A stretch of 24,000 nt of DNA from Ilumatobacter sp. (GCA_036526035.1 DATCZG010000017.1:42773-66772), one strand, 5' to 3'. Positions 2,648-17,538 are shown, numbered from the stretch's first letter. The notes: a model not told the origin generated them from the sequence alone. A program made the numbers and translations.

Positions 2648-3859
2648 GTGAACGCTCCTCGCATCACGGCCGCGCGCGAGCGTGCCTGGCTCGTGATCGG
2701 GTTGGTGATGGCGTCGGCGTGCGTCGCCCAGGCCTTCGGCCGGTTCACCTGGGGGGTGGTGCTGCCGGGCGCCCGCGACGACCTGCTCGGCGGGTCGAAC
2801 ACGATCGCCGGCCTGTTCGGCACGCTCAACGTCACGGCCTACCTGGTGGGCACGCTGGCGGTGTCGTGGGCGGCGTCGAAGGTCACGCTGGTCGGGCTCG
2901 TGCGGCTCGGTCTCGTCGTCTCGACCAGTTCGCTCGGCCTGGCGTCGATCGCCCCGAACGGGCCGGTGCTCGGCGTCGCGCTGTTCATGATGGGCCTCGG
3001 CGGGGCGGTGATCTGGATCCCGGCGCCGGCGATCGCGGCGCGGGTGCTGCCGCCCCGGCGGGCCGGCATGGCGGTCGGGATGGTGGGGTCGGGGATCGGG
3101 ATCGGGATCGTGTTCGCCGGCCAGATGGCCGCGTTCCTCGACCGGCGCAGCGACGCCGACGATCTCTGGCAGACCCTGTACCGGATCGAGTTCTCGATCG
3201 CGGTCGTCGTGTCCGCCGGGGCGTTCGTGCTGCTCAGGTCGCGTGGTGACCGGCCGTCGCTGCGTGGCGGCTTCGGGGGGTTCACGGCGTTGCGCACGGT
3301 GCGGGGATGGATCCCGGCGACCGCCGCGTACGCGTCGTTCGGGTTCGCCTACATCTTGGTGCTGGGGTTCCTGGTCGCCCGCCTCGAGGACGACTCGGGG
3401 TTCTCGTCGGCGCAGGCGACCGCGATGTTCTCGGTGCTCGGCGCCTCGACCGCGGTGGGCGGGCTGCTGCTCGGGCCGTTGTCGGATCGGATCGGCCGCC
3501 GCGTCACGCTCACGTCGGCCTTCACGATCTTCGCCCTCGCGTCGCTGCTCGTGTTGACCGGCCGCCAACCCTGGGTGACGGTGGCCGCGGTCGGGATCGG
3601 GGTGATGTTCTCCGGCATGCCGGCACTGATCATCGCCCACGTCGTCGACAACACCGACACCGACACCTACGGCCCGGCGTTCAGCGCGGCCACGCTGGCG
3701 TTCGGGGTGACCCAGATGGTGTCACCCCAGATCGGCGGGGCGCTCGCCGACGCGCTCGGCTCGTTCACCTGGGTGTTCGTGTTGTCGGCGTCGGTGTCGA
3801 TGCTCGGAGCGTTGTGCTCGAGCCGGCTCCCGCACCCCCCGTCTGACACCGCCGCCTGA
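2648..3859 (+). CDS. MFS-type transporter (YbfB/YjiJ-like), 403 aa
   Basis: GTG start. About 12 hydrophobic helices, rich in Gly/Ala/Leu/Val, with short charged loops (e.g. GPLSDRIGRR between helices, typical of MFS loop 8-9). Codon third positions are strongly G/C, as in neighbouring genes. Confidence 0.75.
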   Translation: MNAPRITAARERAWLVIGLVMASACVAQAFGRFTWGVVLPGARDDLLGGSNTIAGLFGTLNVTAYLVGTLAVSWAASKVTLVGLVRLGLVVSTSSLGLASIAPNGPVLGVALFMMGLGGAVIWIPAPAIAARVLPPRRAGMAVGMVGSGIGIGIVFAGQMAAFLDRRSDADDLWQTLYRIEFSIAVVVSAGAFVLLRSRGDRPSLRGGFGGFTALRTVRGWIPATAAYASFGFAYILVLGFLVARLEDDSGFSSAQATAMFSVLGASTAVGGLLLGPLSDRIGRRVTLTSAFTIFALASLLVLTGRQPWVTVAAVGIGVMFSGMPALIIAHVVDNTDTDTYGPAFSAATLAFGVTQMVSPQIGGALADALGSFTWVFVLSASVSMLGALCSSRLPHPPSDTAA

Positions 3860-3906: not shown

Positions 3907-4398
3907 TCAGCCCGGCATCGTCTCGGGCGGGCCGACGTGTTCGAGCCGGGCGGTGAACCCGATGTACTGCCACATCATGTGCCCGCCCTCCCGCCAGCGC
4001 TTGACCTCGATCGGCATCCCCACCGGACGCAGCACGTGCACCCCGTGCTCGTAGGCGGCGACGACCGTGATCGGCGTGGCCTTGTCGAACTCGGCGACGT
4101 CGTGCACGCCGTGGCCGACGGTGCCGTCGCAGCGCATGTCGTGGATCACGCCGCCGGCGGTGACGACCATCCGGTCGCCGGCCTGCTCGACGCGTTGCAC
4201 GGCGCCGAGCAGCCGGTGTCCGGGCTGGGGCACCCCGTCGACGAGCACCTCGACGACGCGCCACCAGCCGCGCAGATCCGGTGCCCCGGCGACCGGCGGT
4301 TCGCCGCAGCCGGCGAGGATCGGCTCGGGCACCCGGTCGCCGTAGCCGCCGGCGGGCGTGTGGGCGACGGGGACCGTGTCGACGCTGCGGCCCGTCAC
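3907..4398 (-). CDS. Hypothetical protein, 163 aa, function unknown, translationally coupled to TetR
   Basis: The GTG at 4398-4396 overlaps the TetR stop (GTGA on the minus strand). The C-terminal 163 aa of the 383-aa track ORF have normal composition (…LRGWWRVVEVLVDGVPQPGHRLLGAVQRVEQAGDRMVVTAGG…HMMWQYIGFTARLEHVG). The upstream part of that ORF is Arg/Pro-rich and overlaps TetR out of frame. I do not recognise the family. Confidence 0.6.
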   Translation of the reverse strand: MTGRSVDTVPVAHTPAGGYGDRVPEPILAGCGEPPVAGAPDLRGWWRVVEVLVDGVPQPGHRLLGAVQRVEQAGDRMVVTAGGVIHDMRCDGTVGHGVHDVAEFDKATPITVVAAYEHGVHVLRPVGMPIEVKRWREGGHMMWQYIGFTARLEHVGPPETMPG

Positions 4399-5024
4399 GA
4401 CCCACCCGCCCCGGTGAGGGGGTGCGGTGTCAGCAGGTGCGACAGCGCGCGCTCCCAGGCCCGCCGCACCTGAGGTGGTGTGCGCCCGAGTTGGCGGCTG
4501 ACGAGATCCCACGACTCGAACGAGGTCAGGGCGCAGGCGGCGATCGTGATGTCGTCGGCGGCTGCCGGTGCCAACCGGGCGAGTTCCGGGTCGAAGTGGT
4601 GTCGCACCTGGTCGGCGAGGGTGGCGTTGATCAAATGCACCAACTGGTTCGCCTCCTCGACGTCGTGGGCGCGCAGGCGCACCAGCCGGCACATCGGTTC
4701 GGTGGTCTCGTAGAGCGTCGCCCGCGACTCGACGAAGTGGGCGATCCGCTCGTCGAGCGGGCCCTCGCCGACGCCGGGGATGTCGAACAGGTGGGCGTAG
4801 CGGTCGAAGTAGGTGTCGATCGTCTGACGCCGCAGGTCGTCGAGGGTCTCGAAGTAGCGGAACAGCGACGCCACCGACACCCCGGCGCGCGCCGCGACCT
4901 GGTCGGCGGTGGGGGGCAGGTTGCCTTCGAACACGAGGTCGATCATCGCCTCGCTGACGGCGGCGAGGCTGCGCTGCCGCCGCGCCCGGCGTCCGTCGAC
5001 ATTCGGTTCGTGCTCGACTGGCAT
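4395..5024 (-). CDS. TetR/AcrR family transcriptional regulator, 209 aa
   Basis: N-terminal TetR HTH (SLAAVSEAMIDLVFEGNLPPTADQVAARAGVSVASLFRYFETLDDL). ATG at 5024-5022 is preceded by GGGAGGAG 6 nt upstream. It is divergent from the sulfatase operon. Confidence 0.9.
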   Translation of the reverse strand: MPVEHEPNVDGRRARRQRSLAAVSEAMIDLVFEGNLPPTADQVAARAGVSVASLFRYFETLDDLRRQTIDTYFDRYAHLFDIPGVGEGPLDERIAHFVESRATLYETTEPMCRLVRLRAHDVEEANQLVHLINATLADQVRHHFDPELARLAPAAADDITIAACALTSFESWDLVSRQLGRTPPQVRRAWERALSHLLTPHPLTGAGGS

Positions 5025-5072: not shown

Positions 5073-5108
5073 ACTATTGATAGTAACACTCGCACCAGTT
5101 AGTGTCAC
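5073..5108. promoter_or_regulatory. Overlapping divergent promoters plus inverted repeats (candidate TetR operator)
   Basis: This is the most AT-rich spot of the window. Plus strand: TTGATA (5078-5083), 17 nt, TAGTGT (5101-5106). Minus strand: GTGACA (5108-5103), 17 nt, TACTAT (5085-5080). Inverted repeats: ACTAT-tg-ATAGT (5073-5084) and GTAACACT-N10-AGTGTCAC (5083-5108, 7/8 match). Confidence 0.55.
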
Positions 5109-5138
5109 GGTGCACATCCCGCCCGGCGGTCGCACCGG

Positions 5139-5218
5139 AACGACCGAGCGGGCGCGACCGACCAGACGCGACCGGCCGGCACGACCGACCAGACACGACC
5201 GACCAGACACGACCAAGG
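5139..5218. repeat. Tandem array of a 14-nt unit ACGACCGACCAGAC in the sulfatase 5' leader
   Basis: GCGACCGACCAGAC (5154-5167), degenerate GCGACCGGCCGGC (5168-5180), ACGACCGACCAGAC (5181-5194), ACGACCGACCAGAC (5195-5208) and partial ACGACC (5209-5214). There is a related ACGACCGAGCGG at about 5140. The array ends at the SD AAGGGGG just before ATG 5226. Confidence 0.8.
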
Positions 5219-5225
5219 GGGCACG

Positions 5226-7502
5226 ATGACGCGAGCCAGTCGATTCCACGGCACGATCGGCCGCACGCTCGCCGATTCGCAGGCCTGGTTCGACGAGCCA
5301 CCGCACCCCGGGCCCGACGCACCCAACGTGGTGATCGTGCTGCTCGACGACACCGGGTTCGCCCAGTTCGGCTGCTACGGCTCCGACATCGACACCCCCC
5401 ACGTCGATGCGCTCGCGGCGGGCGGCGTGCAGTTCACCAACTTCCACGTCACGCCGCTGTGCTCGCCCACCCGCGCCTCGCTGCTGACCGGCCGCAGCCA
5501 GCACGCGGTGGGGATGCGCGCCGTGTCGAACTTCCGCACCGGGTTCCCCAACCAACTCGGCCACATCAGCAACCATGCGGCCACCGTCGCCGAGGTGCTA
5601 CGCGACGCCGGCTACGCCACGTTCTGCACCGGCAAGTGGCACCTCGCCCCGATGGAGCAGTGTTCGGCGGCCGGTCCGTTCGACCAGTGGCCGCTGGCGC
5701 GCGGGTTCGACCGCTTCTACGGGTTCCTCGAGGGCGAGACCGATCAGTTCCACCCCGAGCTCACCTGCGACAACCACCCGATCGACCCGCCCGCCAAGCC
5801 GGAGGACGGCTACCACCTGTCGGAGGACCTCGTCGACCAGCTGCTCAAGATGGTCTCGGACTCCAAGGGCGTGCGGCCCGACCGTCCGTTCTTCGCCTAC
5901 CTGCCCTTCGGCGCCACCCACGCCCCGCACCAGGCGCCCCAGCGCTACCTCGACAAGTACCGCGGCCGCTACGACGAGGGGTGGGACGTCGTGCGTGAGC
6001 GCTGGTACCGGCGGCAGCTCGAGCTGGGCGTGATCCCCGAGGGCACCCGGCTCGCCCCCCGCAACCCCGGTGTCGACGCCTGGGACACCCTGCCCGAGAA
6101 CCAGCGGCGGCTGGCGTGCCGCCTGCAGGAGGCGTTCGCCGCGTTCCTCGACCACACCGACGACCAGATCGGCCGGTTGGTCGCCGGCCTGCGCGAGATG
6201 GGCGAGTTCGACAACACGGTGTTCGTCGTGCTCGCCGACAACGGCGCCTCGCAGGAGGGCGGCCCGTTCGGTGTGATGCACGAGATGAAGTTCTTCAACG
6301 GCATCTTCGAGACCCCCGACGAGGCGATCGGCAAGATCGACCACATCGGCGGGCCGCACAGCCACACCAACTACCCGTGGGGCTGGGCGCAGTGCGGCAA
6401 CTCGCCGTTCAAGTGGTACAAGCAGAACACCCACGAGGGCGGGGTGCACGTCCCCCTCATCGTGCACGCCCCCGGCCTCGTCGCCGCCGACCAGGCCGGC
6501 ACCACGCGCCGCCAGTTCGTCAACGTGTCCGACATCGTGCCGACGATCTACGAACTCGTCGGCATCACGCCACCCGAGACCCACCGCGGCATCCCCCAGC
6601 TGCCGGTCACCGGCCACTCGTTCGCCGCGATCCTCGCCGACCCGGCGGCGCCGGCCGCCAACACGCTGCAGTACTTCGAGATGAGCGGCAGCCGGGCGCT
6701 CGTCGCCGGCGACCGGCAGTCGCTGTGGAAGGCGGTCTGCAAGCACACCCAGGGCGCCGACTACGACACCGAGCAGTGGGAGCTGTACCACCTCACCGAG
6801 GACTGGTCGGAGTGCAACGACCTCGCCGCGGCCGAGCCCGAACGGCTCGCCGAGCTGATCGCCCGGTGGTGGAGCGAGGCCGAGCGCCACGGCGTGCTGC
6901 CCCTCGACGACCGGATGGCCGAACTGTTCGCCAGCCGGTTCCGGCCCAATTCGCCGCACCCTGCCGACCGGCGCTACGTGTACCGGCCGCCGATGTCGCC
7001 GATGCCGGGCCAGGCCGCCGCCGCGATCGGTGGGCGCAGCTTCGACCTCACCGCCACCGTCACCCGCGCCGCCGGCGAAGAGGGCGTGCTGTACGCCACC
7101 GGTACCCAGAACGCCGGATTGTCGGTGTTCGTGCAGCACGACCGGCTGGTCGTCGACTACAACGCGTTCGACGACCACACCGTCGTCGAATCGACGCTCG
7201 AGGTGCCGACCGGGCGATCGACGCTGGTCGTCAAGGTCCGGCGCGGCGACGGCCGGTCGGGCGCGATCGAGCTCGAGGTCGACGGGCGGCCCGCCGGCGG
7301 CGCCGGGTTGCCGCTGTTCATGCGGATGATGTCGTCGGTCGGCCCGAGCGTCGGGTACGACCACGGTTCGCCGGTGTCGAACCGGTACGCGGCGCCGTTC
7401 CCGTTCGCCGGCAAGCTCCACGAGGTCGTGATCCAGCTGATCTCCAAGCAGGAACTCGACGCGCTCGCCGCCGTCGCGGCGTCCGAGATGAGCCGGCAAT
7501 GA
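5226..7502 (+). CDS. Arylsulfatase, type I (formylglycine-dependent, Cys-type), 758 aa
   Basis: N-terminal metal site [11 protein letters not shown]. Formylglycine motif [13 protein letters not shown] (Cys79 codon at 5460-5462). GKWHL motif (CTGKWHLAP). LADNGAS and a later sulfatase core. The SD AAGGGGG sits 4 nt upstream of the ATG. Confidence 0.92.
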
Positions 7503-8374
7503 GCCTGACGATCACCCTCCTCGGAACCGGCAGCCCGATGCCGAGCCCCGACCGGGCCGGCCCGGCCACGCTGATCTCGGCCGGCTCGGGCTTCGACGCC
7601 GAGCACTACCTCGTCGACGCCGGCCGCGGGGTGCTGATGCGCCTGGCGGCGGTGGGCGTCGGGGCGCCCGGCCTGGCGGCGGTGTTGATCACCCACCTCC
7701 ACAGCGACCACATCACCGATCTCAACGACGTCATCACCACCCGCTGGGTGATGACCCTGCCACCGGCGCCGATCAAGCCGCTGCGGATCATCGGCCCGGT
7801 CGGCACGCGCGCCGTGGTCGAGCACATCCTGGCATCGCTCGGCCCCGACATCGCCTACCGCATCGCCCACCACGACGACCTCGAACAGCCCCCGCTGGTC
7901 GAGGTGACCGAGGTCGCCGAGGGCGCCGTCGATCTGCCGGGCTCGGTGGCGGTCCGTTGCGCCCCGACCGACCACAAGCCGGTCGAGCCGAGCGTGGGCT
8001 ACCGCTTCGACGTCGCCGGCGCCGCCGTGGTCGTCGCCGGCGACACCGTGCCCTGCGACGGCCTCGACGGCCTGTGTGCCGGCGCCGACGCCCTCGTGCA
8101 CACCGTCATCCGCAAGGACATCATCGCCAACGTGCCGGTCCAGCGGATGCTCGACACGCTCGACTACCACTCGTCGCCCGAGGAGGCGGCGCGCACCGCG
8201 GCCCGCGCCGGCGTGGGCACCTTGGTGCTGACCCACTACGTGCCGCCGATCCCCACCGGTACCCCCGGCGACGACTGGCGTGCACTGGCCGCCGCCCACT
8301 TCGACGGCGCGATCGAGATCGGCGACGACCTGCATCGGGTCGAGATCGCCACCAACCCGGCCCAGGAGGCCTGA
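7499..8374 (+). CDS. MBL-fold metallo-hydrolase, RNase Z/ElaC-like, 291 aa
   Basis: ATG at 7499 is in an ATGA overlap with the sulfatase stop. N-terminus [21 protein letters not shown]. HxHxDH metal motif ([11 protein letters not shown]). C-terminal LVLTHY. Confidence 0.85.
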
Positions 8375-8377
8375 ACC

Positions 8378-9289
8378 ATGCACGTCCTACGCACCCCCGA
8401 CGACCGCTTCGCCGATCTGCCCGGCTACCCGTTCGAGCCGCACTACGGCGAGGTCCCCGACGGCGAGGGCGGCACCCTGCGGATGCACTACCTCGACGAG
8501 GGGCCGCGCACCGGGCCGGCCGTGCTGTTGCTGCACGGCGAGCCGTCGTGGAGCTACCTCTACCGCCACATGATCGCGCCGCTGGTCGAGTCGGGCTGTC
8601 GCGTCGTCGCCCCCGACCTGATCGGGTTCGGGCGCAGCGACAAGCCGACCCTCACGAGCGACTACAGCTACGCCCGCCACATCGCCTGGGTCGAGGCGCT
8701 GGTGTTCGGGCATCTCGACCTGAACGACATCACCTACTTCGGTCAGGACTGGGGCGGCCTGATCGGGCTGCGGCTGGTGGCGGCGCACGGCGGCCGTTTC
8801 GCCCGCGTCGCGATCGGCAACACCGGCCTGCCGACGGGGGAGGGACGGCCCAGCGATGCCTTCCTCGCCTGGCAGAGGTTCTCGCAGGAGTCGCCGACGT
8901 TCCCGATCGGTTCGATCGTCAACGGCGGCTGCGCGACCGACCTGCCGCCCGAGGTGATCGCCGCCTACGACGCCCCGTTCCCCGACGACACCTACACCGC
9001 CGGAGCGCGGATCTTCCCGTCGTTCGTGCCCACCTCGACCGCCGACCCGGAGTCGGCGAACAACGCCGCCGCCTGGCAGCAGCTGGCGCAGTTCGACCGG
9101 CCGTTCCTGCTGTGCTTCAGCGATCGCGACCCGATCACCGCCGGCGGCGACGCGCCGTTCCTGGCCAAGGTGCCGGGTACCCGCGGCCAGCCCCACGTCA
9201 CGATCGAGGGCGCCCGCCACTTCCTCCAGGAGGACAAGGGTGCCGAGCTGGCGGCGGTGCTGCTCGGCTTCATCGGGGCCGACCGGTGA
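8378..9289 (+). CDS. dhmA: Haloalkane dehalogenase (alpha/beta hydrolase, HLD-I type), 303 aa
   Basis: RTPDDRFADLPGYPFEPHY…LRMHYLDEGP…LLLHGEPSWSYLYRHMI…PDLIGFGRSDKP. Nucleophile elbow GQDWGG (Asp-Trp). C-terminal catalytic His in GARHFLQEDKG. Starts 3 nt after the MBL stop. Confidence 0.88.
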   Translation: MHVLRTPDDRFADLPGYPFEPHYGEVPDGEGGTLRMHYLDEGPRTGPAVLLLHGEPSWSYLYRHMIAPLVESGCRVVAPDLIGFGRSDKPTLTSDYSYARHIAWVEALVFGHLDLNDITYFGQDWGGLIGLRLVAAHGGRFARVAIGNTGLPTGEGRPSDAFLAWQRFSQESPTFPIGSIVNGGCATDLPPEVIAAYDAPFPDDTYTAGARIFPSFVPTSTADPESANNAAAWQQLAQFDRPFLLCFSDRDPITAGGDAPFLAKVPGTRGQPHVTIEGARHFLQEDKGAELAAVLLGFIGADR

Positions 9290-9308
9290 ACGAGCCCCGA
9301 CCGCTCGA

Positions 9309-9355
9309 CCCCGGCCGCCGCCGGGGCACGACGCGTCGAGCCGGCCGGGCGCCGG
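9309..9355 (+). other. Cluster of GC-rich stem-loops/palindromes in the intra-operon gap
   Basis: CCCCGGC-cgcc-GCCGGGG (9309-9326; 7-bp stem, 4-nt loop). Perfect palindrome CGACGCGTCG (9329-9338). CCGGC-cgggc-GCCGG (9341-9355). No T-tract follows. Confidence 0.45.
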
Positions 9356-9374
9356 GTGCGGCGAGGCGAAGCGC

Positions 9375-9824
9375 GTGACCGCCGTCGTCAAGACCCGGGT
9401 GGTCGCGTCCCCGAGCGAGCGGGTGTGGGACGTCCTCGCGGCGTTCGAACGCATCGCCGAATGGGCGCCGGAGGTCGATCACTCGAGCCTGCTCACCGAA
9501 CACGGGTCAGGCGTCGGAGCCGTCCGTCGGGTGCAGCTCGGGCGGATGGTGCTGACCGAGACGGTGCGTACCTGGCAGGCCGGCTCGGGCTTGTCGTACA
9601 CGATCGCAGGCCTGCCGCCGGTGGTGCGTTCGGTCGTCAACACCTGGCAGCTCGAGCCGGCGAGCGACGGCACGCTCGTCGTGTTGACCACCGAGATCGA
9701 CGCCGGCCCCCGGCCACCGCAGCTGTTGATCGCCCGGGCCGTCGGCCGCCGTCTCGGCGCCGCCGGCGACAGCATGCTCGCCGGACTCGCCGCACACCTC
9801 GAACGACAGGAGCGCCCGACATGA
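9375..9824 (+). CDS. SRPBCC (polyketide cyclase/dehydrase, lipid-binding START-like) family protein, 149 aa
   Basis: GTG at 9375 with GAGG about 8 nt upstream. Typical SRPBCC N-terminus (VVKTRVVASPSERVWDVLAAFERIAEWAP). The stop overlaps the next gene's ATG (ATGA at 9821-9824). The track ORF's N-terminal extension from 9240 is Pro/Arg-rich and lies over the stem-loop region. Confidence 0.75.
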   Translation: MTAVVKTRVVASPSERVWDVLAAFERIAEWAPEVDHSSLLTEHGSGVGAVRRVQLGRMVLTETVRTWQAGSGLSYTIAGLPPVVRSVVNTWQLEPASDGTLVVLTTEIDAGPRPPQLLIARAVGRRLGAAGDSMLAGLAAHLERQERPT

Positions 9825-12415
9825 GCACCACCCGCCCCGACGTGATCATCCTGATGACCGACGAGGAGCGCGCCGCGCCCCCGTACGAGTCCGACGACGT
9901 GGCGCGATGGCGACGCGAGACGCTCACCGGCGCCGCCTGGTTCGACGACCACGCCGTCAACTTCCGGCGCCACTACACCGGCTCGTTGGCATGCGTCCCC
10001 AGCCGGCCGACGATGTTCACCGGCCAGTACCCCGACCTGCACGGGGTCACCCAGACCGACGGGCTCGGCAAGATGCACGACGACACCCGGATGCGCTGGC
10101 TGCCCGCCGGTGAGGTGCCCACGCTCGGCAACTGGTTCCGGGCCGGCGGGTACGACACCCACTACGACGGCAAGTGGCACCTCTCCCACGCCGATCTGCA
10201 CGACGCCGACGGCCGCCGGTTGGACACCAACGACAGCGCCGGTGTCGTCGACGCCGCGGCGGTGCAGCGCTACCTCGACGCCGACCCGCTCGACCCCTAC
10301 GGGTTCTCGGGATGGGTCGGCCCGGAACCGCACGGCGGTTCGCTCGCCGACGCCGGCGTGCGCCGCGACCCCTTGATCGCGGCCCGGGTCGTCGCCTGGC
10401 TCCACGATCGCTACCAGCGGCGCCGCGCCGGCGACCCCGACGCCCAGCGGCCGTTCCTGCTCGTCGCCAGCTTCGTCAACCCACACGACATCGTGCTGTT
10501 CCCGCTGTGGTCGCGCCGCGGCGTTCCGCTCGAGTCGCCGTCGCCGCTCGACCCGCCGCCGGTCGCCGCCGCCCCGACCGCCGGCGAGGACCTCGCCGCC
10601 AAGCCGGCCGCCCAGATCGCCTACCGGGCGTCGTATCCCAGCGGGTACGGCCCGGCGGCCACGGTCGCCCGGCTCTACGACCAGCGTGCCCAGCAGTACC
10701 GCGACCTGTACCACCGGTTGCACGCCGAGGTCGACGGCCCGCTCGACCAGGTCCGCCGGGCGGTCACCGACGGCGGGTCCGAGCACGCCGTCATCGTGCG
10801 CACCAGCGACCACGGCGACCTGCTCGGCGCGCACGGTGGCCTGCACCAGAAGTGGTTCACGCTCTACGACGAGGCCACCCGGGTGCCGTTCTCGATCGCC
10901 CGGGTCGGCGCGGGTGCCACCACGGGCTCGGTGATCGCCGACGCCCCGACGTCGCACGTCGACCTCGTGCCGACCCTGCTCGCGGCGGCGGGCATCGACA
11001 CCGAGATGGCGGCCGAGGTGCTGCGCGAGTCGTTCAGCGAGGTGCACCCGCTGCCGGGCCGCAACCTGATGCCGGTCGTCGACGCCGTCGAGCCGGCCGA
11101 CCGCGACCGCCCGGTGTACCTGATGACCCGCGACAACATGCTCGAGGGCGACACGCTGGCGTCGGGCGTGGCACGCCGTCTGGGCCGCACCGCCAAGCCG
11201 CCCGCACCACTGCGGATCCGGGTGCCCGCCCACGTCGGCGCCAACTTCGAAGGGTTGGTGGCGCGGGTCGCCGACGCCGACGCCCCCGGCGCCGCCGGCC
11301 ACCTGTGGAAGCTGGTGCGCACGTTCGACGACCCGGCGACGTGGACCGAGCCGGGCGTCCGCCATCTCGCCGCCAGCGGCCCCGGCGGCGACGAGTACCG
11401 CACCCGCCCGGTGCCCGACCAGTGGGAGCTCTACGACCTCGACGCCGACCCGGCCGAGGCCGTCAACCGCTGGCGCGACCCGGCCGCCTCGGCGGTGTTC
11501 GACCACCTGCGCGGCGAGTTGAAGGCCGAGCGGGCACGCGCCGTGCCCGAACGCAACGCGCCGTGGCCGTACGCGGCACGGCGGTCGCCCGCCGGCCCGC
11601 CGCGCAAGCAGCCGCCACCCCCGGCGCGCGCCGCCCGGAAGCTGCTGCAGCGCCTCGGCATGCACCCCGACGACACCGAACCCTTCGAGGTCGACGTCGA
11701 CCTCAGCGGGCGGCGGGCGCTCGTCGTCGCCACCAACCACGGCACGCTCGACATCGGCAAGCCGACCGGCGTGTTCGCCAGCGAGATGACCGTGCCGTAC
11801 TACGCGTTCCACGACGCCGGCATGAGCGTCGACGTCGCCAGCCCCAACGGCGGCGTGATCCCGGTCGACCCGATGTCGCTCAAGCCGGTGATCCGCACCG
11901 CCGAGGACGACCGCTTCCTCGCCGACGACGACTTCCGGGCGAAGGTGACCGGTTCGTTCGCGATCGGCGACCTCGACATGACGGCCTACGACATCGTGTT
12001 CCTGGCCGGCGGCTGGGGGGCGGCGTTCGACTTCGGTTTCAGCGAGGCCCTGGCCACCAAGATCACCGAGGCGAACGCCGCCGGCAAGGTGATCGGCGGC
12101 GTCTGCCACGGCCCGCTCGGCCTGCGCAACGCACTCGGCACCGACGGCCGCCCGCTCGTCGAGGGCCGCCGCGTCACCGGGGTGTCCGACAAGCAGGTGC
12201 GCGAGCTGGGCATCGCGTCGACACCTCACCACCCCGAGGCCGAGCTGCGCCGGATGGGGGCGGCGTACGAATCGGTCAGCCGGTTCCGAGACCCGTTCGC
12301 CAACCACTGGGTCGTCGACGGCAACCTGGTGACCGGACAGAACCAGAACGCCGGGCCGATGGTGGCCCGCGAGATGCTCAAGCTGGTCGTCGACCGGCTC
12401 ACGGCGCAGGCCTGA
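9821..12415 (+). CDS. Fusion protein: N-terminal Cys-type sulfatase domain plus C-terminal DJ-1/PfpI/Hsp31-like (class I glutamine amidotransferase-like) domain, 864 aa
   Basis: Sulfatase part: DVIILMTDEER, formylglycine motif ACVPSRPTMFTGQYP (Cys58 codon 9992-9994), YDGKWHLS, RTSDHGDLLGAHGGLHQKWFTLYDEATRVPFSI. A Pro/Arg-rich linker follows (…SPAGPPRKQPPPPARAARK…). DJ-1/Hsp31 part from about 11711: ALVVATNHG…YDIVFLAGGWGAAFDF…GKVIGGVCHGPLGL (nucleophile Cys codon 12104-12106, followed by His)…VVDGNLVTGQNQNAG. Confidence 0.9.
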   Translation: MSTTRPDVIILMTDEERAAPPYESDDVARWRRETLTGAAWFDDHAVNFRRHYTGSLACVPSRPTMFTGQYPDLHGVTQTDGLGKMHDDTRMRWLPAGEVPTLGNWFRAGGYDTHYDGKWHLSHADLHDADGRRLDTNDSAGVVDAAAVQRYLDADPLDPYGFSGWVGPEPHGGSLADAGVRRDPLIAARVVAWLHDRYQRRRAGDPDAQRPFLLVASFVNPHDIVLFPLWSRRGVPLESPSPLDPPPVAAAPTAGEDLAAKPAAQIAYRASYPSGYGPAATVARLYDQRAQQYRDLYHRLHAEVDGPLDQVRRAVTDGGSEHAVIVRTSDHGDLLGAHGGLHQKWFTLYDEATRVPFSIARVGAGATTGSVIADAPTSHVDLVPTLLAAAGIDTEMAAEVLRESFSEVHPLPGRNLMPVVDAVEPADRDRPVYLMTRDNMLEGDTLASGVARRLGRTAKPPAPLRIRVPAHVGANFEGLVARVADADAPGAAGHLWKLVRTFDDPATWTEPGVRHLAASGPGGDEYRTRPVPDQWELYDLDADPAEAVNRWRDPAASAVFDHLRGELKAERARAVPERNAPWPYAARRSPAGPPRKQPPPPARAARKLLQRLGMHPDDTEPFEVDVDLSGRRALVVATNHGTLDIGKPTGVFASEMTVPYYAFHDAGMSVDVASPNGGVIPVDPMSLKPVIRTAEDDRFLADDDFRAKVTGSFAIGDLDMTAYDIVFLAGGWGAAFDFGFSEALATKITEANAAGKVIGGVCHGPLGLRNALGTDGRPLVEGRRVTGVSDKQVRELGIASTPHHPEAELRRMGAAYESVSRFRDPFANHWVVDGNLVTGQNQNAGPMVAREMLKLVVDRLTAQA

Positions 12416-12425
12416 CAGGAGCGAG

Positions 12426-13238
12426 ATGGCCGACACCCCCCGCTACGGACAGGTCGACCGGGACTACGGCATCCGGCTGGCCACGACACCGCCCGACGAG
12501 GACGGTCCGATCTGGATGGTCAACTTGATGAAGTACCGCGAGCACGCCGACTACGGCGACGGCGGCGGGCCGGCGATCAGCGGCCGTGAGGCCGACGACC
12601 TCTACACCCCGTTCGACGTGCTCGCCGCGATCGGCGCCGAGGTCGTGTTCGCCGCCGACGTCGACCAGCAGTTGCTCGGCGCCGCGCCGCAGTGGGACCG
12701 GGTGGCGATCGTGAAGTACCCGACGCGTCGCTCGTTCATCGAGATGCAGAGCCGGCCCGACTTCCAGCGCCGCCACGTGCACAAGGACGCCGGGATGGAG
12801 ACGACGATCGTCAGCGGCTGCCTGCCGATCGCGCTGCCCGCCGGCGATCCGGTCGACTGGGCCGACGTGCCCCACCCGCCGACCGCCGATGACGGTCCGG
12901 TGGTGGTGATCCACGTGCTGAAGTTCCAGGCGTCGACGGCGGTGACACCCGACGAGATGGTCGCCTACCAGCAGGCCGCGGCCCGGGTGGCGGTGCCCCA
13001 CGGGGTGCGGCTGAACGGGTGGTTCGCGGTCGAGGGCACGATCCTGGGCGACGGCCGCTCGTGGGACCAGATCCGGTTCAACGAGTTCCCCAGCAAGGCG
13101 GCGTTCATGGCCGTGGCGCTCGACCCGGCCCGGCTCGATGCCCAGCACGGCCACCGCGAGGTGGCGATCGCCGACACCTACACGATGATCCTGCGGGCCC
13201 ACGTCAACCGGCTGGCCGAGTCGATCGCCGCCGGCTGA
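12426..13238 (+). CDS. Protein with two tandem DUF1330-like (dimeric alpha/beta-barrel) domains, 270 aa
   Basis: AGGAG 5 nt upstream of the ATG. Two internal repeats end in the DUF1330-like block: WDRVAIVKYPTRRSFIEMQSRPDFQ and WDQIRFNEFPSKAAFMAVALDPARL. Confidence 0.8.
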   Translation: MADTPRYGQVDRDYGIRLATTPPDEDGPIWMVNLMKYREHADYGDGGGPAISGREADDLYTPFDVLAAIGAEVVFAADVDQQLLGAAPQWDRVAIVKYPTRRSFIEMQSRPDFQRRHVHKDAGMETTIVSGCLPIALPAGDPVDWADVPHPPTADDGPVVVIHVLKFQASTAVTPDEMVAYQQAAARVAVPHGVRLNGWFAVEGTILGDGRSWDQIRFNEFPSKAAFMAVALDPARLDAQHGHREVAIADTYTMILRAHVNRLAESIAAG

Positions 13239-13265: not shown

Positions 13266-14069
13266 TCAGTCGGCGAGCGTGCCGGCGAACACCTGCCAGG
13301 CGAGGGCGCTCTTGGCGGCCAGGCTGAGCACGAGGTACACCTGCTCGCCGTAGAGGTAGTCGGCGAACCTGCCGCGGCCGCGGTACTGCAGCCACTGGTT
13401 GAGGGCGAAGCAGTTGAACAGCACGAACAGCGACACGAAGATGCCGTACACGAAGCCGGGCACGCCGTCGCCTTCGCGTTGTGAGGTGATCAGCGCGATC
13501 GCGATCACGATCCAGGGCACGATGCCGGCGAGGCCGCCCAGCGTGAACGGCCACCAGTCGACCGGGTCGCCGGGCCGGTTGGTGCGTTCCATCAGCCAGC
13601 CGAAGGCGATCATCGCGGCGTTGACGGCGAACAGCCCGATCAGGGCGTAGAGGTTGGTGATCCCGGGCAGCATCGCGATCAGCACGACCATCAGCGAGGC
13701 GCTCACCGAGTACTCGATCCACCGGGCGACGTTGATGCCGCGTCGCAGGTTCGCCTCGTACCAGCCGACGACGCCCGGGGCGGCCATCAGCAGGTGATCG
13801 GCGGCGGCGAGGAACAGGAACACCGCGATCGCGACCGAGAACCGGAGATCGAAGAACACGTGCTCGATCGTGAGCGGGGTGCCGGGAGGCCCGTCCTGCA
13901 CCGGCGCCCCCACCGCGATCGCGAAGCCGTTGCCGAGCAGCAGGATCAGCACGCCCTGTGCGAGGTGGGCGACGCCGACGCCGACGTTCCAGCGCCGCAG
14001 GCGTGCCAGGCGGTCGACCACCGGGGCGCTGGTCGGATCGACGCTGGTCGGATCGGCGCTGGTGCTCAC
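13266..14069 (-). CDS. Heliorhodopsin (retinal-binding 7-TM photoreceptor, inverted topology), about 267 aa
   Basis: Block-by-block resemblance to heliorhodopsin 48C12 as I remember it: GVAHLAQ (TM1 His), ADHLLM (TM2 His), RWIEYSVSASLMVVLIA (counterion Glu), VNAAMIAFGWL, PGFVYGIFVSLFVLFNCFALNQWLQYRGRG, YLVLSLAAKSALAWQVFAGTL (Schiff-base Lys codon 13311-13313). The start is uncertain. GTG 14069 is chosen because it is the first start codon after ATG 14204. The 14070-14204 stretch has lower GC3 and overlaps the upstream gene's end. Confidence 0.9.
   Translation of the reverse strand: MSTSADPTSVDPTSAPVVDRLARLRRWNVGVGVAHLAQGVLILLLGNGFAIAVGAPVQDGPPGTPLTIEHVFFDLRFSVAIAVFLFLAAADHLLMAAPGVVGWYEANLRRGINVARWIEYSVSASLMVVLIAMLPGITNLYALIGLFAVNAAMIAFGWLMERTNRPGDPVDWWPFTLGGLAGIVPWIVIAIALITSQREGDGVPGFVYGIFVSLFVLFNCFALNQWLQYRGRGRFADYLYGEQVYLVLSLAAKSALAWQVFAGTLAD
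14028..14063. repeat. 15-nt in-frame tandem repeat in the heliorhodopsin N-terminal tail
   Basis: GCTGGTCGGATCGAC (14028-14042), GCTGGTCGGATCGGC (14043-14057) and partial GCTGGT (14058-14063). On the minus strand this encodes S-ADPTS-VDPTS-A. Confidence 0.75.
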
Positions 14070-14181
14070 GGGGGTGCTCGCTTTCGGTCGGGTGGGTGCC
14101 GGCGAAGCTCGCGCGTCGCACCCGGTCGTGCCAGATGGAACAGCGGTCGATGGTGGATATTCCCGTCGTCGTTCGCCGGGA

Positions 14182-15012
14182 TCACTCCCCGTGGGCCGGC
14201 ACACCGGCGGTGAACACCGGCCGGTCCGCGGCCCGGCGCACGGTGGTGCGAGCCCGGGCGACCAGGTCGGCGAGCGGCTGTCCGGCGCCGCCGACGAGGG
14301 TGGCGACCCCCGCGGCCGCGAGGTCGCCGGCGGCAGCCGCGGCGGTCGCCGCCACGTCCGGCTGGGTGACGGTGATCACGGCGACGTCGACGCCGTTCCC
14401 GGTGCAGAACCGGATGAACTCGGCCGCCGGGAGGTCGGCCCCGAGGTGGTGCACGTGCCAGTGGTCGGCCCGCAGGGCGACCGCCGCCATGGTGGTCGGC
14501 AACGAATGCCGGTCGCCCGACAGCGCGGCCACCGCAGCGGTGCCGCGGCGGCGGCCGCGCGGGTTCGGGGCGAGCTCGCCGAGCAACCGTTCGACGATCG
14601 CCGACGCCCGGTGTTCGGCCCAGATCGTGAGGTCGCCCGTCGACCAGGCGCTGCCGATCGCCCGCAACGACGGGGCGAGCACCTGCTCGACGAGATCGAG
14701 GATCGGTGTGCCCTCGGCGACCAGGCGGGTGGCGATCCGGACGGCGGCGGCCTCGTCGCCGGCGACCAGCGCGGCGTGCATCCGCTCGGCGGCGTGGTGC
14801 ATCCGGGCCGGTCGCGGCGGTGGCGGCGCCTGCGGCGCCCGCCGCGACCGCTCGAGTTCGGCGGCCGCCGAACGCGACACCAGGTAACGACCGGCGACCA
14901 TCTCGGCCGGCAGGGTCCCGTTGCGCACCCATCGGTAGGCGGTCTGGTAGTGCACGCCGAGCAGTTCGGCGGCCGCCGCCAACTCGACTCGTTCCTCGGC
15001 CGCTGCATCCAC
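14182..15012 (-). CDS. HTH (excisionase/MerR-superfamily) plus cobalamin(B12)-binding domain transcriptional regulator, CarH/LitR-like candidate photoreceptor, 276 aa
   Basis: N-terminal HTH AAAELLGVHYQTAYRWVRNGTLPAEMVAGRYLVS. Helical-bundle motif W-x9-EH = W123 STGDLTIWA E133 H134 (codons 14646-14611). B12-binding Rossmann part with SGDRHSLP (D-x-H-x-x-P; His169 codon 14508-14506), …DVAVITVT…, …LVGGAG. GTG start at 15012. Confidence 0.85.
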   Translation of the reverse strand: MDAAAEERVELAAAAELLGVHYQTAYRWVRNGTLPAEMVAGRYLVSRSAAAELERSRRAPQAPPPPRPARMHHAAERMHAALVAGDEAAAVRIATRLVAEGTPILDLVEQVLAPSLRAIGSAWSTGDLTIWAEHRASAIVERLLGELAPNPRGRRRGTAAVAALSGDRHSLPTTMAAVALRADHWHVHHLGADLPAAEFIRFCTGNGVDVAVITVTQPDVAATAAAAAGDLAAAGVATLVGGAGQPLADLVARARTTVRRAADRPVFTAGVPAHGE

Positions 15013-16565: not shown

Positions 16566-17024
16566 ATGAGCGCCACCCGGCGGGCGGTCGTGGTGAGCAC
16601 CGTGATCGGGCGTTCGCCCGGCGAGGTGTGGGCCGACGTCCGCGACATCGCCTCCCACGTCACCTGGATGCAGGACGCTGCCGAGATCCGGTTCCTCACC
16701 GACGCCCGCGAGGGCATCGGCACCCGCTTCGAGTGCGACACCAAGGTCGGCCCGTTCTCGCTGACCGACGTGATGGAGATCACCGCGTGGGAGGATGCCC
16801 GGCGCATGGGGGTTCGCCACGTCGGCCTGGTCGAGGGCCGCGGCGAGTTCACCCTCGCCGAGCTGGCGGGCGGGGCGACCGAGTTCCGGTGGGAGGAGGA
16901 TCTGATCTTCCCCTGGTTCCTGGGTGGGCCGGTCGGCGCCTTCTTCGCCCGGCCGGTGCTGCGGCTGATCTGGAAGCGCAACCTGGCGCGGCTCAAGCAG
17001 CGCCTCGAAGCCCCGGCGGGCTGA
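16566..17024 (+). CDS. SRPBCC family protein, 152 aa
   Basis: AGGTGG 5 nt upstream of the ATG. SRPBCC-like N-terminus (VVVSTVIGRSPGEVWADVRDIASHVTWM) and a C-terminal amphipathic helix. Confidence 0.8.
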   Translation: MSATRRAVVVSTVIGRSPGEVWADVRDIASHVTWMQDAAEIRFLTDAREGIGTRFECDTKVGPFSLTDVMEITAWEDARRMGVRHVGLVEGRGEFTLAELAGGATEFRWEEDLIFPWFLGGPVGAFFARPVLRLIWKRNLARLKQRLEAPAG

Positions 17025-17034
17025 GGCCGGCGTG

Positions 17035-17538
17035 ATGAACCGGTGGCGACACCCGGTGCCCGACCCGGTCGGCCCCGGGCAGGAGTCGGTGTGGGACTAT
17101 CCCCGCCCGCCCCGGCTCGAGACGTCGGCCCGGCACGTGCGGGTCGAACTGGGCGGGGTCGTCGTCGCCGACAGCGACCGGGCGCTGCGGGTGCTCGAGA
17201 CGTCGCACCCGCCGACCTACTACGTGCACCCCGACGACGTCGCCTGGCAGTACCTCCGCCCGGCGCCGGGTGGCTCGTTGTGCGAGTGGAAGGGCCAGGC
17301 GTCGTACTGGACGGTGGCGGCGGGCGACCAACTGGTCGAGGCCGGCGCCTGGTCGTACCGCGACCCGACGCCGCACTTCGCGGCGATCGTCGACCACGTC
17401 GCGTTCTACCCGGCACGGTTCCGCTGCCTGCTCGACGACGAACCGGTCACCCCCCAGCCGGGCGGGTTCTACGGCGGGTGGGTCACGGGCGAGCTGGCCG
17501 GCCCGTTCAAAGGCGGCCCCGGCACGTTCGGTTGGTGA
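17035..17538 (+). CDS. DUF427 domain-containing protein, 167 aa
   Basis: Characteristic ESVWDYPRPP…, SHPPTYYVHPDDV, CEWKGQASYW and …HVAFYP blocks. ATG 17035 has GAGG 8 nt upstream (GTG 17032 is an alternative). The stop overlaps the next gene's GTG. Confidence 0.8.
   Translation: MNRWRHPVPDPVGPGQESVWDYPRPPRLETSARHVRVELGGVVVADSDRALRVLETSHPPTYYVHPDDVAWQYLRPAPGGSLCEWKGQASYWTVAAGDQLVEAGAWSYRDPTPHFAAIVDHVAFYPARFRCLLDDEPVTPQPGGFYGGWVTGELAGPFKGGPGTFGW

Follow-up and report, generated by a model that had tools for sequence, protein, structure and literature searches.

We have analysed a stretch of 24,000 nucleotides (the window; G+C = 72%) on contig C17 of a metagenome-assembled genome (MAG) of Ilumatobacter sp. 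that is 2.8 Mb in size and 78.7% complete. Between positions 5226 and 13238 the window carries six consecutive genes, for two sulfatases (Sulf1 and Sulf2), a metallo-beta-lactamase-fold hydrolase (MBL), a haloalkane dehalogenase (HLD), a protein of the SRPBCC superfamily and a protein with tandem DUF1330 domains, which face a divergent gene for a TetR-family regulator. These families are found together, in varying order, in dozens of species. In our judgement it is moderately probable, from sequence and synteny, that they form a substrate-inducible cytoplasmic hydrolase unit for organosulfate esters, which would consist of two co-travelling modules and to which an alkyl-halide module is frequently attached. 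The individual parts belong to known superfamilies and a TetR-controlled hydrolase operon is in itself ordinary; it is the conserved combination that is uncharacterised. We found no description in the literature of the cluster, nor of an Ilumatobacter sulfatase or dehalogenase.

The conservation of the gene set was studied in a scan of one genome per species, which identified 339 loci encoding a relative of Sulf2. The best 80 of these (at least 69% identity) were examined, and partners were counted in the 47 loci, each from a different species, that have enough flanking DNA to be untruncated. In these 47 loci Sulf2 is accompanied by SRPBCC in 47 cases, by TetR in 39, by Sulf1 in 37, by MBL in 35, by HLD and by DUF1330 in 33 each, by a gene of the HTH_67 family in 19, and in 7 by up163, a 163-aa protein encoded in the window next to TetR. 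The SRPBCC gene is immediately upstream of Sulf2 in all 80 loci. Within the genus, a tblastn search of 17 stretches recovered the arrangement Sulf1-MBL-(HLD)-(HTH_67)-SRPBCC-Sulf2-(DUF1330) in at least 10 species, accompanied by a gene for TetR. Carriers among the best 80 loci include Ilumatobacter and other Acidimicrobiia, the cultured Actinospongicola halichondriae and Salinilacustrithrix flava, the sponge-associated Ca. Poriferisocius, Nocardioides sp. Root1257, N. hankookensis, and MAGs labelled Mycobacteriales, Frankiales and Mycobacterium; across bacterial classes the identity of Sulf2 is approximately 70-75%. The order of the genes is different in different lineages, being MBL-Sulf1-SRPBCC-Sulf2 in Poriferisocius and Sulf1(-)/SRPBCC-Sulf2-HTH67-HLD in Nocardioides. 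Since the order varies while the membership is kept, we read this pattern as a signature of functional linkage, not of an inherited neighbourhood. Synteny in at least 47 untruncated loci from Acidimicrobiia, Nocardioides, Mycobacteriales and Frankiales thus identifies one conserved unit, and the chance juxtaposition that a preliminary description of this locus had considered is set aside by a degree of recurrence far beyond chance. In an even draw of 396 near-complete genomes of Actinomycetota a Sulf2 orthologue was present in only 11; the distribution is thus patchy, and the sequence strongly conserved.

Two modules emerge from a comparison of these loci, Sulf1-(MBL)-HLD (module A) and SRPBCC-Sulf2-(DUF1330) (module B, in which Sulf2 also bears a DJ-1 domain, described below), and each of them is found alone as well. 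Module A is found without module B as Sulf1-MBL-HLD (G006), as TetR-Sulf1-MBL-HLD-DUF1330 (G053), and as Sulf1-HLD (G009 and G023). The adjacency of sulfatase and dehalogenase therefore survives where module B is missing, which argues that the link is not accidental, and HLD is part of the full cluster in many species of the genus. In the complete genome G018 (L131 = G018:C1:4101000-4120500, ~9223-11012) Sulf1 is intact, one frameshift splits MBL and another splits HLD, no match to Sulf2 was found anywhere in the genome, and no SRPBCC gene was found beside the remnant of module A; the frameshifts could reflect decay of the module or an assembly error.

Genes were called by frame analysis of third-position G+C and translation, and the boundaries agree exactly with those of an independent public gene call for the contig. 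All six genes are on the + strand. Sulf1 (5226-7502, 758 aa) overlaps MBL (7499-8374, 291 aa) in an ATGA; 3 nt separate MBL from HLD (8378-9289, 303 aa); a gap of 85 nt (9290-9374) precedes the SRPBCC gene (9375-9824, 149 aa, GTG start), which in turn overlaps Sulf2 (9821-12415, 864 aa) in an ATGA; and 10 nt lie between Sulf2 and the last gene, which encodes the tandem DUF1330 protein (12426-13238, 270 aa). A purine-rich ribosome-binding site is present ahead of each start codon, and a pattern scan of the + strand recognized no terminator-like site within 5226-13238. With a single strand, short or overlapping junctions and no internal terminator, the set has the sequence features of an operon, from which we infer that the six genes are co-transcribed. 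No N-terminal signal peptide was recognized on inspection of the N-termini of the operon proteins, and overall the catalytic domains look intact, cytoplasmic and co-regulated. The tight packing of the genes on one strand, the divergent regulator and the two Cys-type sulfatases, MBL-fold hydrolase and haloalkane dehalogenase of the preliminary description are all upheld by our analysis. Its claim that the 85-nt gap is structured is not: the minimum free energy of the gap is -49.9, as compared to a mean of -51.2 for shuffled sequences (z = +0.35), and the gap has no Rfam match. In many relatives the position of this gap, between HLD and SRPBCC, is occupied by an HTH_67 gene of the SCO6745 family (PF21863, E = 2e-69; ~290 aa; for example, L048:8647-9528 and L051:8686-9534), a paralogue of which, 45% identical, is present on contig C8 of the window's own genome.

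The TetR gene (4395-5024, - strand) faces the six-gene set and overlaps the downstream up163 gene (3907-4398, - strand), with which it is translationally coupled, in a GTGA, so that the divergon comprises eight genes. The assignment to the TetR family is weak but consistent: the helix-turn-helix domain scores 22.6 bits against PF00440, for which the cut-off is 24, and there are weak matches to five structures of the family, the best one being 2ras (3e-5). The region between the two transcription units contains a predicted promoter/operator common to both directions (5075-5108). On the + strand a -35 box TTGATA (5077-5082) and a -10 box TAGTGT (5100-5105) are separated by a 17-nt spacer; on the - strand GTGACA (5108-5103) and TACTAT (5085-5080) are likewise 17 nt apart, and in a promoter scan this site (5108-5080) was the only sigma-70-like promoter in 10 kb. 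An imperfect 17-bp palindrome, TGATAGT-AAC-ACTCGCA (5078-5094), overlaps the -35 box and the spacer of the + strand promoter. When 14 loci with a divergent TetR orthologue were aligned, from several genera including that of S. flava, the consensus TATTGAyAGT-N3-ACTCkCA-N2-AGTTA was obtained, which comprises the -35 box, the palindrome (7+3+7) and the first bases of the -10 box. At the operator position L095 has a perfect palindrome, TTTTGCGAGT-GAA-ACTCGCAAAA, and upstream of it L096 and L107 have an additional imperfect palindrome. This phylogenetic footprint supports as a predicted operator the region 5073-5108 that had been proposed from the window, and the conservation of the palindrome-bearing promoter (5075-5105) next to a divergent TetR gene makes control by TetR plausible. 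A TetR gene, divergent or co-directional, accompanies 39 of the 47 loci; in many loci other than the 14 aligned here a more distant TetR (37-44% identity) is instead the first gene of the operon. Between promoter and Sulf1, approximately six tandem copies of a 14-nt repeat (5135-5218, + strand; repeat family D1, unit ACGACCGACCAGAC, spacing 13-14 nt) occupy the 5' leader of Sulf1 as far as the Shine-Dalgarno sequence, while the leaders of the relatives are shorter and do not have the array.

The dhaR-dhaA genes of Rhodococcus are a haloalkane dehalogenase unit repressed by a divergently encoded TetR regulator. The divergent TetR gene and the palindrome over back-to-back promoters suggest a similar arrangement here, with the difference that the predicted regulated set consists of seven other genes, among which sulfatases dominate.

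The assignment of HLD as a subfamily-I haloalkane dehalogenase is unambiguous at the level of sequence: it scores 450.9 bits against NF002043 (cut-off 265), matches PF00561 at 4e-23, and aligns over its full length with 4mj3 (E = 4.3e-117), with further matches to 6f9o, 5esr, 2xt0 and DhlA (1b6g/1edb). The catalytic pentad is that of 4mj3 in the alignment, with D124-W125 (DWGG), W165 (LAWQ), D249/D251 (DRDP) and H281 (RHF), so that the nucleophile Asp-Trp, the cap Trp, the acid Asp and the His of the solved subfamily-I enzymes (4mj3, 6f9o, 5esr, 2xt0, DhlA 1edb) are all kept. Those enzymes have been studied as degraders of xenobiotics or as orphan enzymes, whereas HLD is embedded in a conserved sulfatase operon, a context for which we found no description in the literature.

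Sulf1 and Sulf2 both match the Pfam Sulfatase family PF00884 (1.4e-64 and 2.2e-38, respectively) and both are S1 sulfatases of the Cys type, as their CxPxR motifs read C79SPTR and C58VPSR. The metal- and sulfate-binding motifs are LLDD39, GKWH136 and DNG338 in Sulf1, and MTDE12, GKWH117 and DHG330 in Sulf2. Residues 32-557 of Sulf1 align with the arylsulfatase AtsA/PAS of Pseudomonas aeruginosa (1hdh, E = 1.8e-81), an enzyme classed as SulfAtlas S1_4 (PMC5066984). Sulf1 has the same CxPxR, GKWH and DNG motifs; it differs from PAS in an additional LamG-like C-terminal domain of ~200 aa, and in belonging to a TetR-linked operon with a dehalogenase, while PAS is encoded in the sulfate-starvation ats locus. 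The additional domain (residues ~580-740) is predicted as a LamG/ConA-like beta-sandwich (predicted local distance difference test, pLDDT, 82.7), and its Foldseek matches are the LG domains of agrin and neurexin, CBM40, and the LG domain with which SHBG binds steroids; a search of this kind gives the fold class of the model, a LamG-like sandwich, and not a substrate. The window's own genome contains only one paralogue of Sulf1, and few sulfatases overall.

Sulf2 is a fusion of a sulfatase to a DJ-1/PfpI domain (residues ~650-855; PF01965, 1e-12), a feature that is absent from the preliminary account. The sulfatase part has only a distant likeness, at ~1e-12, to choline sulfatase and phosphonate monoester hydrolase. 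The C-terminal 230 aa match proteins of the Hsp31/DJ-1 glyoxalase III class at 1e-34 to 1e-17, namely Geobacillus 1u9c (1.3e-34), C. albicans glyoxalase III 4lru and yeast Hsp31 (1qvv), and the Cys-His nucleophile elbow of these proteins is kept as C762-H763 in GGVCHGP; in Sulf2, however, the domain is covalently joined to a formylglycine sulfatase. The fusion is abundant in metagenomes, where it is represented by at least 3336 clusters at 90% identity with generic annotation, the best 120 of which all have the same architecture, and yet no functional study of a sulfatase-DJ-1/Hsp31 fusion was found in the literature. In five genomes of one genus, from another family of Actinomycetota (G124, G191, G229, G285 and G296), the match to Sulf2 is confined to the sulfatase part (residues 4 to ~600, ~75% identity), which means that there the DJ-1 domain is unfused or absent; separate frames for sulfatase and DJ-1 were also seen in G011, G013 and G031. 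The only Rfam match inside the operon is to the Mycobacterium small RNA Ms_AS-5 (RF02465; 9992-10036, - strand; 67.6 bits versus a gathering score of 46; 41 of the 45 bases agree with the consensus). It is exactly antisense to the codons of the formylglycine motif CVPSR of Sulf2, CVPSRPTMFTGQYPD. We rejected it as a small RNA gene, because the match most likely reflects conserved coding sequence of a mycobacterial orthologue; no target gene for Ms_AS-5 was found in the literature.

Among the remaining partners are candidates for ligand binding. The protein first described as lipid-binding is a member of the SRPBCC/Polyketide_cyc2 family (PF10604, 2.6e-22) and a putative ligand-binding protein. 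The score of the last gene against PF07045 (DUF1330) is 20.0 bits, under the Pfam cut-off of 23, but the product matches the DUF1330 protein RPA0582 (3dca) at 1.4e-10, and the protein is a tandem of domains from the dimeric alpha/beta-barrel superfamily. Our literature search returned nothing on the function of DUF1330. For up163 there is no Pfam or NCBIfam match; 17 alignment columns are invariant across ten homologues, and its AlphaFold2 model (pLDDT 92.8) is a predicted 10-stranded beta-barrel like those of the intracellular lipid-binding proteins. The top Foldseek matches in the PDB are CRBP, FABP and BABP (retinol-, fatty-acid- and bile-acid-binding, respectively), with E ~2e-4 and TM-scores of 0.48-0.71, which are moderate and therefore allow a statement at the level of the fold only. 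In the 7 of 47 loci in which it occurs, up163 is next to TetR or after Sulf2. On the basis of this model we consider up163 a second candidate hydrophobic-ligand binder of the unit. That the ligand is hydrophobic, as had been suggested at the outset, is plausible, because the cluster has both an SRPBCC protein and a predicted FABP-like barrel.

These results can be combined into a working model of the unit. Without inducer, a dimer of TetR would sit on the 17-bp palindrome and so cover both the -35 box with the spacer in the operon promoter and the -10 box in the promoter of its own gene, and would thereby repress both the operon and the TetR/FABP-like gene pair. The repressor would be released by an amphiphilic organosulfate or by its alcohol product. 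Sulfate would then be removed by the two S1 sulfatases, and possibly by MBL as well, and halide by the dehalogenase through an SN2 attack by Asp124; the chemistry that these enzymes would share is a hydrolysis in which carbon loses an anionic leaving group, either sulfate or halide. A poorly soluble substrate, product or inducer may be held by the SRPBCC protein and by the FABP-like barrel; the presence of two ligand-binding proteins and of the LamG-like tail is consistent with a substrate that is poorly soluble or amphiphilic. Finally, the fusion of a DJ-1/Hsp31 domain to Sulf2 suggests a Sulf2 product that is reactive or has to be hydrolysed a second time, and the domain (Cys762-His763) might clear a reactive carbonyl or amide formed by the sulfatase part.

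The role of MBL in such a unit is a matter of concern, as the gene could be the true RNase Z of the cell that merely sits in the operon, in which case only five of its genes would be functionally related. MBL matches Pfam Lactamase_B_2 with the motif H66LHSDH, and it passes the NCBIfam model NF000806 'ribonuclease Z' (393.8 versus a cut-off of 363), so that an annotation pipeline would give it that name. No protein in five Ilumatobacter genomes reaches the cut-off of TIGR02651, the general model for RNase Z. A survey of the tRNA genes gave a mixed picture, with many genes that have no encoded CCA and others that have one; the former count for the RNase Z explanation, without deciding it. However, MBL itself is far below the cut-off of TIGR02651 (111.7 versus 292.95), and its matches to this model, to E. 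coli RNase Z (2cbn) and to 3zwf are all split at residues ~116-170, where the protein is ~36 residues shorter than 2cbn and thus does not have the exosite or flexible arm of RNase Z. In E. coli RNase Z this region is the site of the tRNA-binding arm. The only solved structure matched end to end is 8gyg, named 'Arysulfatase' (MBL residues 5-281 to 11-302, E = 8.5e-15). The AtsA (S4) arylsulfatases are an offshoot of the ElaC/RNase Z family that branches next to RNase Z, and the described members of this small published clade are all from Proteobacteria (PMC5066984). Like the S4 enzymes (P. carrageenovora AtsA; 8gyg), MBL has an HxHxDH motif and apparently an ElaC/AtsA-type fold collinear with 8gyg, though the similarity is low at that E-value and in NCBIfam the protein falls under RNase Z. 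Also contrary to an RNase Z are the ATGA overlap with Sulf1, the retention of MBL alongside the sulfatases in 35 of 47 loci, some of which differ in gene order, and its frameshift in the complete genome G018. We regard the RNase Z explanation as quite unlikely; the overlap, the retention and the frameshift argue that MBL belongs functionally to the cluster, where it may be a third ester hydrolase.

A number of observations weigh against an inducible organosulfate hydrolase unit, among them the RNase Z score of MBL just described, together with the lack of a canonical RNase Z in the five genomes and the many tRNA genes without encoded CCA, and the weak scores of the TetR protein. A further point is the maturation of the two sulfatases. 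A profile search of the window agrees with the preliminary description that it contains no gene for a formylglycine-generating enzyme (FGE) or an anaerobic sulfatase-maturating enzyme (anSME); in the rest of the MAG there was no match to PF03781 (FGE) and none to TIGR03942 (anSME) above its cut-off, the candidates for anSME being weak radical-SAM matches of ~30 bits versus a cut-off of 349, which we rejected. FGE was found in 21 of 40 genomes of the genus, including the cluster carriers G002, G019, G022, G012 and G011, and was likewise not found in G007, a cluster-bearing genome of 98% completeness. How the two sulfatases mature is thus unexplained in the window's own genome and in G007; the absence of FGE from the former may be due to incompleteness, while in the latter an FGE-independent route is conceivable. 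The cluster has no conserved transporter, which is awkward for charged sulfate esters that come from outside the cell. A gene of the MFS family (2990-3859) was considered as a linked transporter and rejected, since it was matched in only two relatives, the closest ones. A candidate ABC ATPase gene was likewise rejected as a member; matches to the DNA there indicate no more than conservation of the adjoining sequence in close relatives. Finally, HLD is missing from 14 of the 47 loci, and the cluster-bearing genome G019, 96% complete, has no HLD orthologue at all. In these comparisons the link between sulfatase and dehalogenase is genuine and recurs, and it is obligatory in neither direction.

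This last point bears on the proposal that the operon encodes a single pathway for a lipid that carries both sulfate and halogen, for example chlorosulfolipids or halogenated algal alkyl sulfates, in which each sulfatase would act on one kind of sulfate ester, HLD would remove the alkyl chlorides and the SRPBCC protein would be the carrier. The persistence of the Sulf1-HLD linkage across several gene orders, even without module B, makes this an attractive idea, and it is in keeping with the presence of two different S1 sulfatases and two predicted hydrophobic-ligand binders, and with the origin of carrier MAGs from marine sediment, sand, sponge and soil. That there is one substrate of this type, as the preliminary description had it, is thus possible, but it is not required by loci and a whole genome (G019) in which HLD is missing, and HLD occurs besides with no cluster partner in the stretches examined from G021 and G055, and in G016 on a contig separate from that of an HLD-less cluster. 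The spread of the cluster over soil, sediment and sponge bacteria argues for a commoner substrate, no transporter is linked to it, and for chlorosulfolipids in particular we found no direct support, nor any literature on their breakdown by bacteria; we consider the proposal highly improbable. The modular and variable composition, and the sporadic addition of GST-like, SDR and DinB-like genes, would agree with a co-regulated set for general detoxification, in which haloalkanes, sulfate esters and reactive carbonyls are separate electrophiles that are not processed in successive steps. The DJ-1/Hsp31 class is known for carbonyl detoxification (from the names of its PDB relatives), and the broad haloalkane specificity of HLD relatives such as the 4mj3 protein (DmrA) would be on the same side. 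This too is unlikely, as the ATGA coupling and the ~70-75% identity that Sulf2 retains between classes speak for a function that is specific and under selection, and the SRPBCC-Sulf2 pairing is invariant. A further possibility is that of a sulfur-scavenging arylsulfatase system like the ats system of Pseudomonas, with the other genes as passengers: Sulf1 is clearly PAS-like, and a genome with few sulfatases and a single Sulf1 paralogue would be compatible with it. We give it very little credence, because regulation is apparently exerted by a local TetR instead of a regulator of sulfate starvation, there is no atsRBC-type transporter or sulfonate monooxygenase nearby, and the non-sulfatase partners are conserved just as tightly. 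The reading of the operon as an inducible hydrolase unit for organosulfate esters with a frequent alkyl-halide module remains the one that we prefer.

Beyond the divergon the window contains several genes that we do not assign to the unit. A heliorhodopsin gene (13266-14204, - strand; PF18761, E = 1.7e-93) converges on the operon and adjoins the cluster only in the closest relatives; directly upstream of it is a gene for a B12-binding helix-turn-helix regulator (14182-14982, - strand; PF12728, PF02607, PF02310). A second Polyketide_cyc2 (SRPBCC) gene is found 3.5 kb downstream of the operon (~16685-17143, + strand), with NTP_transf_9, PAP2 and SDR genes as neighbours. In 11 of the 80 loci a GST-like protein of ~366 aa is encoded after the DUF1330 gene (for example, L055:13338-14444) as a sporadic extra member; GST-like, SDR, DinB-like and acyl-CoA ligase neighbours were all too sporadic to be counted as members of the cluster.

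To our knowledge, haloalkane dehalogenases have no known natural substrates except in pollutant degraders. A dehalogenase with a recurrent link to sulfatases, in many uncultured and in some cultured Actinomycetota, is a concrete place in which to seek them. As sediments, soils and sponges commonly harbour Ilumatobacter and its relatives, the substrate may be an organic-sulfur pool of some relevance, and the Sulf2 fusion is abundant in environmental data (at least 3336 protein clusters). The question is also accessible at the bench, through the cultured carriers Actinospongicola halichondriae, Salinilacustrithrix flava, Nocardioides sp. Root1257 and N. hankookensis. The boldest form of our proposal, which we hold to be very unlikely, is a dedicated pathway for natural halogenated organosulfates (chlorosulfolipid-like compounds or halo-alkyl sulfates from algae, sponges and invertebrates), in which the Sulf2 fusion would couple desulfation to the immediate removal of a carbonyl. 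If this were true, a reactive carbonyl would form wherever an oxygenated or geminally substituted carbon bears the leaving group, and the subfamily-I haloalkane dehalogenases would gain a long-sought physiological role.

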